64,000 bases of DNA, taken from assembly GCF_016026235.1 (NCBI RefSeq), contig NZ_CP065613.1, one strand, 5' to 3'. The position numbers were made by a program. Below, piece by piece: positions 9,001-11,364 of this stretch (positions within the stretch are counted from its first letter, which is position 1; every line of letters starts with the position of its first letter). This DNA comes from Escherichia coli. Its GTDB lineage: Bacteria; Pseudomonadota; Gammaproteobacteria; Enterobacterales; Enterobacteriaceae.

Positions 9001-11364
9001 CATCCGCTTTCATCGCAGCAGCCGGGTGTGCCTTAATCAGCACATCACCGTTCTGCGTTTCCGTGCGGTAGGTATAACCCTCAACATCGAGGGTTTCGCA
9101 GTGATGCCGGTATTCGGTGTAGGCTTCCACCAGCAACTCGAGTGCACGCGCATCAAGCTGAGAAATGATCCCTTCCGCATTCAGCTCTTCCGCCATTCGC
9201 CTGAACCAGTACTTTCCCTGCGCCCCTAAATGCTGCGGAATTTTAGGGAGACCTTTTTCGTCCTTTTTAGCGGTTTTTTTGGCGTCTTTAACGGGACGCT
9301 TTGAGGGATTGCCTCGTATCAAATGCAGGCGTGGCGGGGTTTTCGGGGGTCCTGACATAATCGATTTTACCTATCAATCGCTTGATCGCATTCCCAAAAA
9401 AAAGTTTTCGAACCTGCGGCGATGCGAGGAAGGGTTGGCGGGCGGTCCCGGACAGCCAGGGCTGCAGGGATTTGACCCGCCCCTCCCTACAAGTGAGAAT
9501 AATTATCACCTGATTCGTTCGCGCGCTGTTTTCGCTTTATGGCAGGGCCAGCACAGACTCTGCAGGTTGCTGTCTGCGTCTGTTCCGCCATGCGCTTTCG
9601 GGATGATGTGGTCGACGGTTTTCGCCTCGCTCACCACACCGACACGCAGACACAACTGACACAGACCTTTATCGCGCTTCAGAATACGGGCACGAATCAC
9701 CGTCCATTTTGAGCCATAGCCACGCTGGTGGCGGCTCAGTCCGCGCTGGTGCTGCACCCAGCCTTCACCGCGATGCTTATCGCAGTAACCCGAACTGTCT
9801 GTGGTTGTACCTGCACATCCACGCTTACGGCAGGCACGTGGGATTAGTGATGGCATAAATACCTCATACCCTGCGAAATGTTTACCACGATAAAAAGGCT
9901 ACTTAATGCACTGAGTGCGGATATACTCCTGTGCCCCTTCCAGTTGCATCTGCATCGTCATCAGCCGCTCTCTGAGGGTGAAATAATCCCGTTCAGCGGT
10001 GTCTGCCAGTCGGGGGCTGGTTGCATTATCCACGCCGGAGGCGGTGGTGGCTTCACGCACTGACTGACAGACTGCTTTGATGTGCAACCGACGACGACCA
10101 GCGGCAACATCAGCGCGCAGAGTTTCATTTTCAGCTTTCGCATCAGCTAACTCCTTCGTGTATTTAGCATCGAGTGCATTAACATCACGCTGTCTCTGCT
10201 GCATGTCAGTAATGGTTGCGTTCGCCAGCTTCAGTTCTCTTGCGTTTTTGTCGCGCTGCTCTTTGTAGGTAATGGCGTTATCACGGTAATGATTAACAGC
10301 CCATGACAGGCAGACGATGATGCAGATAACCAGAGCGGAGATAATCGCGGTGACTCTGCTCATTGCTGCCCCCACAAACAGACTTCACGCTCAATCTCAC
10401 GACGGGTCATCAGCCCTTTCCATTGCTTACCGCCAGCATATGGCCAGCGACGTAGCTGGTCACATGCGCCTTTGATATCGCCCTGGTTTATTTTGCGAAG
10501 AAGCATCGATGTTCTGAAATTGCCAGCGCCCACGTTGTAAACGAACGAGTAAAGAGCGCCGCGCGTTGTTTCCGGTATATCGACTTTGATGTACGGGTTA
10601 ATTTGTCTGGCGACAGTGGCAAGGTCTTTATTCAGGAGGGCTTTGCATTCTGCTTCGGTATACGTTTTACCGAGCATGATGTCTTTTCCGGTGTGTCCGT
10701 GGCATACAGTCCATACGCCAACGATATCTTTGTATGGTATGTAGCTGACACCTTCCAGACCATCGTTACCACCTGGGCCAGTGATGAGCACAGACGCTAT
10801 GGCAATAGCCCCACCACCAATAGCAACTGCAACAGCCTTGCGTAATGATGGCGACATTATTCACCTCTCGCAGCCTTACGCTTGTCTTCTCTGATTTTGA
10901 AGTACAGATTTGTCAGATAAGTCAGGAAGCCCAGAACCAGACTCCCCAGTACACCAATCGCAGCCCACTGTGACGGACTGACCTGATCAAGCCACTGTAA
11001 AAACCAGTAGCCAGCACTGCCTGCGGAGGTGCCGTAGGCAATGCCCGTTGAAATTTTGTCCATGGATTTCATAGCCTCACCTCCGCAAATAACGGATGGC
11101 GTAGTTTTACACTGAGAAATGAAAGGGATTTGAAAAGAAAAAACCGCAAAAGCGGGCGAAACGATATATACAGTAAGGAAAGCACTCTATCCAACAAACC
11201 ACTCACAGTTAATCGGAATAAAAGCAGAGTGCTTATGAATGATCGCCTGCCCGAAGGTTAGTATTTCTGCACAGCAATTTTGCAAAAAAAAGCGATCATT
11301 CATAACTTAAACGTCTTTCAGTCACTCCGGGATTTCCCATCATCGCAGACTGAAAGACTCTAAC

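Follow-up and report, generated by a model that had tools for sequence, protein, structure and literature searches.

Lysis by a pinholin, a SAR endolysin and spanins, as in phage 21, is textbook knowledge. In phage lambda, S is a class I canonical holin with three transmembrane domains (TMDs) that opens micron-scale holes, and the enzyme R has no SAR domain and is soluble in the cytoplasm. The mechanism of the S21 68 pinholin and the SAR endolysin has been described (PMC9239132; PMC9636201), and SAR endolysins such as P1 Lyz and Mu gp22 were described as having a weakly hydrophobic, Gly/Ala-rich N-terminal anchor followed by an E-X8-D-X5-T triad (PMC9239132). For the spanins, definitions are available for the lipobox and for the embedding of Rz1 in Rz, and the intermolecular disulfides involve Rz Cys99 and Cys152 and Rz1 Cys29 (PMC6139136). 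A phage 21-type cassette, essD-rrrD (ybcS)-rzpD/rzoD, is also found intact in DLP12, an Escherichia coli K-12 prophage unable to make virions.

We analysed a 64,000-nucleotide stretch of E. coli DNA (hereafter, the window), in which a preliminary description had placed a complete pinholin/SAR endolysin/Rz/Rz1 cassette at 9899-11072. The four lysis ORFs are indeed present there, all on the minus strand and in the order S-R-Rz/Rz1, and each of them matches its Pfam family (Table 1) far over the curated cut-off and far beyond chance; a reading of raw sequence alone can, in this respect, correctly recognise a lysis cassette. We consider it very probable that 11072..9899 (-) is a phage 21-type lysis cassette belonging to the late, putatively Q-dependent operon of a lambdoid E. 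coli prophage that has become defective.

Table 1. Coordinates of the lysis genes, of the upstream late-operon elements and of the damaged packaging genes in the window.
Feature	Position	Strand	Description
S, antipinholin S71 from M1	10857..11072	-	71 aa; Phage_holin_2_1 (PF04971), E=1.4e-35
Pinholin S68 start (M4)	11063	-	M1-K2-S3-M4 dual start
R, SAR endolysin, GH24 muramidase	10360..10857	-	165 aa; Phage_lysozyme (PF00959), E=1.7e-44, 151.6 bits
SAR domain of R	10780..10836	-	residues 8-26, after basic R6-K7; from composition and comparison with R21
Rz, i-spanin	9899..10363	-	154 aa from ATG; Phage_lysis (PF03245), E=3e-52, 176.5 bits
Rz1, o-spanin lipoprotein	9961..10143	-	60 aa; Rz1 (PF06085), E=6.4e-20, 71.1 bits
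Four-tRNA cluster, late-operon leader	11365..11674	-	CAT anticodon (Ile2-type), Lys-TTT, Thr-TGT, Gly-TCC; ARAGORN and Rfam
Putative tR' intrinsic terminator	11782..11805	-	GC-rich palindrome AAAACCCGCCCACAAGCGGGTTTT forming a hairpin, then a T run
Putative late promoter pR', overlapping the end of Q	11856..11884	-	-35 TTGCAA, 17-nt spacer, -10 TATATT; 9/12 consensus positions
Late-gene antiterminator Q, whole ORF	11873..12562	-	Phage_antiter_Q (PF06323), E=6.2e-91, profile positions 1-214/220
TerL pseudogene	7118..8876	-	frameshifted near 8451 (G5 to G6), with a stop at codon 147/586
Portal gene with IS insert	4541..6924	-	portal 6924..5833, cut after nt 1092/1242; ISEc60 5832..4541

Layout of the cassette and its late operon

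The cassette shares with phage 21 (GenBank OL657228.1) the gene order, the gene overlaps, the embedded Rz1, the dual start, the SAR domain, the catalytic triad, the lipobox and the disulfide cysteines; that GenBank record lists the phage genes as antiholin/pinholin class II, SAR endolysin, i-spanin and o-spanin. At the DNA level the identity to phage 21 is 91.7% across 98% of the cassette length, and 553 phage records match the cassette DNA. The junctions are translationally coupled in the classic way, with TAATG at S/R and ATGA at R/Rz, and a Shine-Dalgarno motif lies ahead of both S and Rz1 (GGAGGTGA and AAGGAG, respectively). Since the exact sequences of all four proteins are already in public databases, and about three quarters of complete E. 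coli genomes (3,948 of 5,426) carry an R21-type endolysin gene, the cassette is not new: it is an already known lysis module, an ordinary phage 21-type system.

The Q protein of the window is of the PF06323 type, with about 229 residues, whereas Q21 has 162; its ORF starts at a GTG, giving 229 aa, and is called as 227 aa in identical loci of draft genomes. The Q ORF is whole, in contrast to its homologue in one relative (L002), which is annotated as frameshifted. The predicted pR' coincides in position with pR' of phage 21, and tRNA genes are located between pR' and S in both, four in the window (Ile2-type, Lys, Thr and Gly) and two in phage 21 (Asn and Thr). The tRNA with the CAT anticodon was assigned to Met by ARAGORN, while an identical tRNA is annotated as tRNA-Ile in RefSeq NZ_CP065615. 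Apart from tRNAs, the Rfam scan detected no regulatory RNA in or adjoining the cassette. On the other side, the cassette is followed in the window by an HNH-TerS-TerL packaging module and in phage 21 by bor.

The features pointing to a Q-dependent late operon are the whole Q ORF, a promoter-like site matching 9/12 consensus positions and a hairpin followed by T residues, the last two being consensus matches. The terminator scan called the palindrome on the plus strand, and the T tract is visible when the minus strand is read; by analogy with the lambdoid pR'-tR' arrangement, this hairpin and T tract would correspond to tR'. The strongest promoter-like site of the scan (10/12, at 11451..11424) falls inside the tRNA genes and was taken as a chance match.

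The holin, the endolysin and the spanins

All residues known to be critical are present in the four proteins: the dual start, the catalytic triad, the lipobox Cys20 of Rz1, Cys99 and Cys152 of Rz and Cys29 of Rz1. S is identical to S21-71 in 70 of 71 residues, including the whole of residues 1-63, with a conservative R64K as the sole difference, and its PF04971 score (121.5 bits, where the cut-off is 26) places it in the S21 holin family. Its N-terminus, MKSMDK, preceded by the Shine-Dalgarno motif mentioned above, contains both Met1, with the extra Lys2, and Met4. A Kyte-Doolittle (KD) scan with a threshold of 1.0 had returned a single TMD for S, and a targeted look found a weakly hydrophobic, uncharged TMD1 with KD values of 0.5-0.6. 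This segment (residues 8-28) is composed of G/A/S/T in 12 of its 21 positions and its best 19-residue KD mean is 0.64, whereas TMD2 (residues 36-54) is a strongly hydrophobic, stable anchor (KD mean 1.72), and the short, basic C-terminal tail has a net charge of +3. Because weak hydrophobicity is an expected property of S21 TMD1, we retained the earlier proposal of a short, S21-like holin with two TM segments. Given its identity to S21, S would form small heptameric depolarising channels that do not release a soluble endolysin (PMC9636201).

The endolysin R shares 157 of its 165 residues (95%) with R21, and its best PDB matches are RrrD (4ZPU, E=1.3e-107) and R21 (3HDE and 3HDF), with E-values from 1e-107 to 1e-92 for these three structures; two structures of P1 Lyz, 1XJT and 1XJU, match distantly, with E about 1e-07. 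P1 Lyz and Mu gp22 have only remote sequence similarity to R and work with different holin or releasin partners. The Glu35/Asp44/Thr50 triad, spaced as E-X8-D-X5-T, is kept in R and is invariant or nearly so among 134 homologs. The SAR segment differs from that of R21 only by A11V. Its KD mean is 2.24. G/A/S/T make up 58% of this segment and 32% of the Rz TMD, and the summed Hessa free energy is +0.36 kcal/mol for the SAR segment and -2.46 kcal/mol for the TMD of Rz; in composition, the weakly hydrophobic N-terminal segment is distinct from the true TMD of Rz. The Gly/Ala-rich, SAR-type N-terminus attributed to R in the preliminary description agrees with the identity to the experimentally characterised R21, the RrrD and R21 structures and the residue composition. 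An ordinary cleavable Sec signal peptide, by which R would be secreted and not anchored for signal-arrest-release, could be suggested by the n-region with Arg6/Lys7, the hydrophobic core and the small residues A-I-A-S at positions 19-22, which could score as a cleavage site. We find this scarcely credible, since 31 of the first 34 residues match those of the phage 21 SAR endolysin, the full-length 165-residue chain of R21, including its N-terminal segment, was crystallised (3HDE), and the partner of R is a pinholin, a pairing typical of SAR endolysins (PMC9239132; PMC9636201).

For Rz, an in-frame GTG at 10375 is also listed as a start; the ATG is favoured by the phage 21 annotation, by RefSeq for the relatives and by the ATGA stop/start overlap. 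Rz has an N-terminal TMD (residues 4-22, KD 2.63) followed by the Rz-family periplasmic domain, as in i-spanins, and cysteines at positions 14, 18, 99 and 152, of which Cys99 and Cys152 are periplasmic. It is identical to phage 21 Rz in 135 of 154 residues, their C-termini reading ...TQCIK in the window and ...EQCR in phage 21, and its nucleotide sequence is the same as that of Rz from strain RMDEC465. Rz1 lies wholly within Rz, its start being offset by 220 nt, which corresponds to the +1 frame, and carries the lipobox L-V-V-V-G-C, in which VVGC (residues 17-20) fits the consensus [LVI][ASTVI][GAS]C (PMC6139136); both the embedding in another frame and the LVVVGC lipobox had been correctly recognised before. 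Lipidation at Cys20 would leave a mature Rz1 of 41 aa with nine prolines and a Thr, not an Asp, at +2, as in o-spanins. Its cysteines are at positions 9, 20 and 29, and 55 of its 60 residues are identical to phage 21 Rz1. Lambda S105/S107-R-Rz-Rz1 has the same four-function layout, with Rz1 in the +1 frame of Rz and the same Rz Cys99/Cys152 and Rz1 Cys29 (PMC6139136); the window differs from it by a class II holin (PF04971) and by an endolysin predicted to be membrane-tethered.

A defective prophage and its relatives

The structural genes were reported as defective in the preliminary description, and two lesions account for this: a 1-bp G insertion in TerL, and an insertion sequence of 1,292 bp that interrupts the portal gene. 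The TerL insertion and the break points in the portal gene were defined by alignment to a relative (L003) in which TerL is intact. TerL is split into ORFs of 146 and 434 aa, the second of which matches the Pfam families TerL_ATPase and TerL_nuclease. The element in the portal gene is an IS4-family ISEc60, named after copies with 99.8% identity that are annotated in RefSeq, and is flanked by a target duplication of 11-12 bp; Phage_portal and DDE_Tnp_1 are the Pfam matches of this region. With TerL frameshifted and the portal gene interrupted, the prophage cannot make particles. It has HK97-like head genes and a Qin-like dicB/DicF early region, and its site is next to tRNA-Ser(cga).

The same cassette and lesions, identical in sequence, are found in five independent draft assemblies. 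These were reached by exact-protein look-up; in the complete E. coli RefSeq genomes searched, the best match to the window had only 97.3% identity, over 3.2 kb. In relatives, the homologous genes are named 'rrrD' and 'class II holin' in RefSeq. In the prophage repressor only an HTH_3 domain was recognised, with no S24 autocleavage domain, and SOS induction is for this reason not assured.

Two missense changes in R, T118M and T139P, are private to the lineage of the window and set it apart from phage 21; compared with its nearest relative, R has no other nucleotide difference. Residue 118 is a Thr in 128 of 132 homologs (about 97%). Residue 139 is naturally variable (T/I/N/A), and a Pro at this position was observed in none of the other homologs sampled (134 homologs). 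In an AlphaFold model of R of moderate quality (mean pLDDT 73.6, below 50 around residues 141-144), residue 118 begins a helix and residue 139 falls in coil, and the model neither supports nor excludes damage by the two substitutions. When the window was compared with its intact relative across S-R-Rz-TerS, four out of four lineage-private point changes were missense, which suggests relaxed selection, although four substitutions are too few for a synonymous versus non-synonymous test, the probability that all are missense by neutrality being about 0.3 (an estimate). S, HNH, portal and capsid have larger differences from the intact relative, which are due to mosaic recombination and not to recent divergence.

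Proposed lysis mechanism and possible fates of the cassette

As the proteins are nearly identical to phage 21 and lambda counterparts that have been studied by experiment, we infer the following mechanism, including expression and timing. Q-modified RNA polymerase would start at the putative pR', read past the putative tR' and across the four tRNA genes, and so reach S-R-Rz/Rz1. S would be translated both as pinholin S68, from Met4, and as antipinholin S71, from Met1, with both products building up in the inner membrane, and R would be exported by Sec and held at the membrane in an inactive state through its SAR domain, which is rich in Gly/Ala and weakly hydrophobic. The proton-motive force would collapse when, at a programmed moment, small heptameric channels (about 2 nm) are formed by the pinholin; the SAR domain would then exit the bilayer, allowing R to refold into an active muramidase (Glu35/Asp44/Thr50) that degrades peptidoglycan. 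A complex of Rz, in the inner membrane, and Rz1, an outer-membrane lipoprotein, would finally disrupt the outer membrane. With reading frames, catalytic residues and Q intact, it is plausible that the cassette is a leftover that would be potentially lethal if expressed, as the preliminary description proposed for induction. Three points weaken this proposal: the two private missense changes in R, the exclusively missense private changes across S-R-Rz-TerS and a repressor with no recognisable S24 domain.

Intact ORFs are not equal to functional genes, since R already carries two unusual lineage-private substitutions, either of which could weaken it. The cassette may thus be whole only as ORFs and already decaying, with T118M/T139P attenuating or inactivating R, so that expression would at most depolarise the membrane and not cause lysis. 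The missense nature and lineage-privacy of both differences from the nearest relative, the conservation of Thr118, the uniqueness of Pro139 and the exclusively missense private changes in S-R-Rz-TerS, next to two destroyed genes, form the pattern expected when purifying selection no longer acts. Nevertheless, the catalytic triad and every position of R conserved in at least 98% of the homologs are unchanged, residue 139 is variable and modelled in coil, residue 118 is modelled at the start of a helix, and, as noted above, the number of substitutions is too small to be decisive. Even with a dead R, a triggered pinholin alone would be lethal (PMC9239132). We regard such a decay as unlikely and T118M and T139P as probably tolerated in R.

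The persistence of the four ORFs while TerL and the portal gene are broken could also be read in the opposite sense, namely that the cassette is kept for low-level peptidoglycan turnover or for vesicle or biofilm functions and not for phage release. The configuration is fixed in several assemblies, and there is a precedent in DLP12, a defective prophage whose lysis module has been conserved, is transcribed and affects the production of outer-membrane vesicles (PMC7918800). Yet the sampled assemblies are 100% or nearly identical, and the lesions may simply be recent; the private changes in the cassette are only missense, at conserved or otherwise Pro-free positions, which is the opposite of a purifying-selection signature; and a Q-independent promoter was not demonstrated. 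We consider a host function very improbable, and likewise the more specific proposal that the module, perhaps tuned down by T118M/T139P, is kept as a host-serving device and is more than a remnant that has not yet decayed. If true, the module might serve the controlled turnover of peptidoglycan, altruistic lysis or vesiculation, in line with proposals made for DLP12. DLP12 is a different prophage at a different site, and its module has experimentally observed transcription and host phenotypes (PMC7918800), while the cassette of the window is known from its sequence.

The cassette adds one more defective prophage in which the lysis genes have outlasted the packaging genes, and matters little beyond annotation. 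In experimental use of the strain, the cassette could add to lysis or vesiculation under stress.

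Composition of the lysis cassette

A complete four-gene lysis cassette had been proposed at 9899-11072, and four minus-strand ORFs were indeed found there, S, R, Rz (i-spanin) and Rz1 (o-spanin), all whole, so that the cassette is intact at the ORF level. Their Pfam matches are all well over the curated cut-offs and, therefore, the cassette is real and a chance pattern is excluded. The S/R junction is a TAATG overlap. For Rz, the ORF listing gives an in-frame GTG start at 10375. Both the phage 21 annotation and the RefSeq entries of relatives begin the gene at the ATG at 10363, which overlaps the stop codon of R in the classic ATGA form. 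Rz1 lies wholly within Rz and, since its start is offset by 220 nt from that of Rz, is read in the +1 frame.

Features of the prophage region and its late operon
Feature	Position	Strand	Description
Q antiterminator	12562..11873	-	intact gene; PF06323, E=6.2e-91
Promoter-like site	11884..11856	-	predicted; overlaps Q end
GC-rich hairpin + T tract	11805..11782	-	putative terminator
Four tRNA genes	11674..11365	-	CAT anticodon, Lys-TTT, Thr-TGT, Gly-TCC
S	11072..10857	-	71 aa; Phage_holin_2_1, "Bacteriophage P21 holin S", E=1.4e-35; phage 21: 70/71 identical (R64K)
R	10857..10360	-	165 aa; Phage_lysozyme, E=1.7e-44; phage 21: 157/165 identical (P2S, A11V, S29G, K68E, M98T, T118M, T139P, I159V)
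Rz	10363..9899	-	154 aa from ATG; Phage_lysis (Rz), E=3e-52; phage 21: 135/154 identical
Rz1	10143..9961	-	60 aa; Rz1, E=6.4e-20; phage 21: 55/60 identical
HNH endonuclease	9506-9856	-	
TerS	8876-9358	-	lineage-private R125W, P151L
TerL	7118-8876	-	pseudogene
Portal	5833-6924	-	interrupted
ISEc60	4541-5832	-	IS4-family, 1,292 bp
sok antitoxin RNA	14575-14750	-	Rfam, 118.9 bits
YdaT-like ORF	18806-19231	opposite to repressor	
Candidate repressor + ParE-family toxin region	19573-20607	+	
ParE-family toxin ORF	20317-20607	+	96 aa; just downstream of candidate repressor
DicF antisense sRNA	21759-21810	+	early-left region; Rfam, 76.7 bits
Tyrosine integrase	25155-26312 region	+	346 aa; adjoins tRNA-Ser(cga)
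tRNA-Ser(cga)	26223-26312	-	

The S N-terminus (MKSMDK) retains the Met1/Met4 dual start, residues 8-28 are uncharged and weakly hydrophobic (12/21 G/A/S/T), TMD2 (residues 36-54) is clearly hydrophobic (Kyte-Doolittle mean 1.72) and the C-terminal tail is basic. Judged by its sequence, S is S21 itself, which is a class II, two-TMD pinholin (PMC9636201). In R, Arg6-Lys7 precede a segment (residues 8-26) with 58% G/A/S/T and a summed Hessa free energy of +0.36 kcal/mol, versus -2.46 for the genuine Rz anchor; this matches the literature account of SAR domains, Ala/Gly-rich stretches of weak hydrophobicity (PMC9239132). An E-X8-D-X5-T triad is formed by Glu35, Asp44 and Thr50. In Rz, a TMD lies at the N-terminus (residues 4-22), and Cys99 and Cys152 are present. 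Rz1 combines a VVGC lipobox, a predicted lipoylated Cys20 and Thr at +2 with Cys29 and a mature peptide containing nine prolines. Lambda-type embedded spanins are defined by exactly this set of features (PMC6139136). The preliminary description was thus right about the short S21-like holin with two TM segments, the Gly/Ala-rich SAR-type N-terminus of R, and an Rz1 embedded out of frame in Rz with the lipobox it gave as LVVVGC.

The 553 phage records with a match to the cassette DNA include coliphage 21 (OL657228.1; 91.7% identity over 98% of the query), where the counterparts are annotated as antiholin S21-71, pinholin S21-68, SAR endolysin, i-spanin and o-spanin. R also matches the structures 4ZPU (RrrD of DLP12, the K-12 defective prophage; E=1.3e-107), 3HDE (full-length R21; E=1e-106) and 3HDF (truncated R21; E=3.6e-92). 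The exact sequences of all four proteins are already in public collections, those of S, Rz and Rz1 each on about 1,000 or more contigs, and R21-type endolysin genes occur in 3,948/5,426 complete E. coli genomes. The identification is correct but ordinary; DLP12 is a studied precedent for an intact phage 21-type lysis module kept in a defective prophage (PMC7918800).

Operon context and proposed mechanism

The upstream order resembles that of phage 21 (Q, pR', terminator, tRNAs, S), which has two tRNAs (Asn and Thr) at the equivalent place instead of four. The CAT-anticodon tRNA is of the Ile2/AUA type, because an identical gene is annotated as tRNA-Ile in RefSeq, and about 290 bp separate the cluster from S. 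Downstream of the cassette, the operon runs on to HNH endonuclease, TerS, TerL, portal, protease, capsid and connector genes, and no terminator was seen between the cassette and these packaging/head genes. The HNH gene immediately follows Rz and precedes TerS, without a terminator; HK97-like cos phages show this arrangement, and in them an HNH protein assists the terminase.

If the near-identical proteins of phage 21 and lambda are a guide (PMC9239132, PMC9636201, PMC6139136), Q-dependent transcription from pR' would yield S68/S71, R, Rz and Rz1. After export, the SAR domain would hold R in the inner membrane in inactive form until pinholin triggering forms channels of about 2 nm and collapses the proton-motive force; R would then be freed, refold and cleave peptidoglycan, and the Rz-Rz1 complex would finally disrupt the outer membrane. 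From the sequence anatomy and homology observed here, we infer that the cassette can be expressed, how it would be timed and that this R allele would be active.

Lesions of the late operon and the endolysin allele

Compared with the uninterrupted relative in E. coli RMDEC465, the G5 homopolymer of TerL near 8451 has expanded to G6, so that translation stops at codon 147 of 586, and the portal gene is broken after nt 1092 of 1242 by ISEc60, flanked by an 11-12 bp target duplication (GGGATTTACTC). The structural genes are therefore defective, as had been described. Only a few E. coli genomes have ISEc60 copies at 99.8% identity, with as many as 39 places in a single genome. No more than 18 contigs encode the exact R protein. 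In all five exact-R loci shown, the portal ends early, at 364 or 362 aa, and TerL is split or uncalled; a transposase lies beside the portal in the two long enough to include that region. Four of these loci match the window without a mismatch (100% identity) over 8.6-12.5 kb; in the fifth, 2 nt of 12.5 kb are different. A sequencing artefact was rejected as the source of the lesions, since they recur in independent draft assemblies.

Rz/Rz1 are nucleotide-identical to those of the RMDEC465 relative, and R differs by exactly two nucleotides, both missense (T118M and T139P). A second relative, taken as outgroup, shows both to be private to the window's lineage, and this pair is the only mildly notable detail of the cassette. 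Among 134 homologs (78-97% identity), no position conserved at 98% or more is altered; position 118 is Thr in 128/132, and position 139 is T/I/N/A, with Pro in the window allele only. In an AlphaFold model (mean pLDDT 73.6), residue 118 opens a helix and residue 139 lies in coil after helix 128-137; neither substitution is obviously destructive, nor is either clearly harmless. Functionality of the cassette is, therefore, not to be assumed. Lineage-private substitutions in the 1,662 nt of S, R, Rz and TerS number four, all of them missense and all in R or TerS; this suggests that selection on the late operon relaxed once the prophage was defective, n=4 being too few to test.

Early region and prophage ends

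The early region is Qin/Rac-like, with DicF, a YdaT-like gene and hok/sok, and one relative locus has dicB, ydfC and ydfB, as in a Qin-like early module. In identical loci a HOK_GEF toxin ORF adjoins sok, a pair that homology identifies as a hok/sok type I toxin-antitoxin within the prophage. The candidate repressor (176 aa) has an HTH_3 domain only; no S24 autocleavage/peptidase domain was found in it. The integrase/tRNA-Ser(cga) junction is probably the attachment site and the right end of the prophage, which extends past the left end of the window. The host flank (26367-45990) contains an M90 peptidase (MtfA-like), four tRNA-Asn(gtt) genes (at 27304, 41683, 43507 and 45915) and a 2,643-aa inverse-autotransporter adhesin (27742-35673) with IAT_beta and 16 Big_1 repeats.
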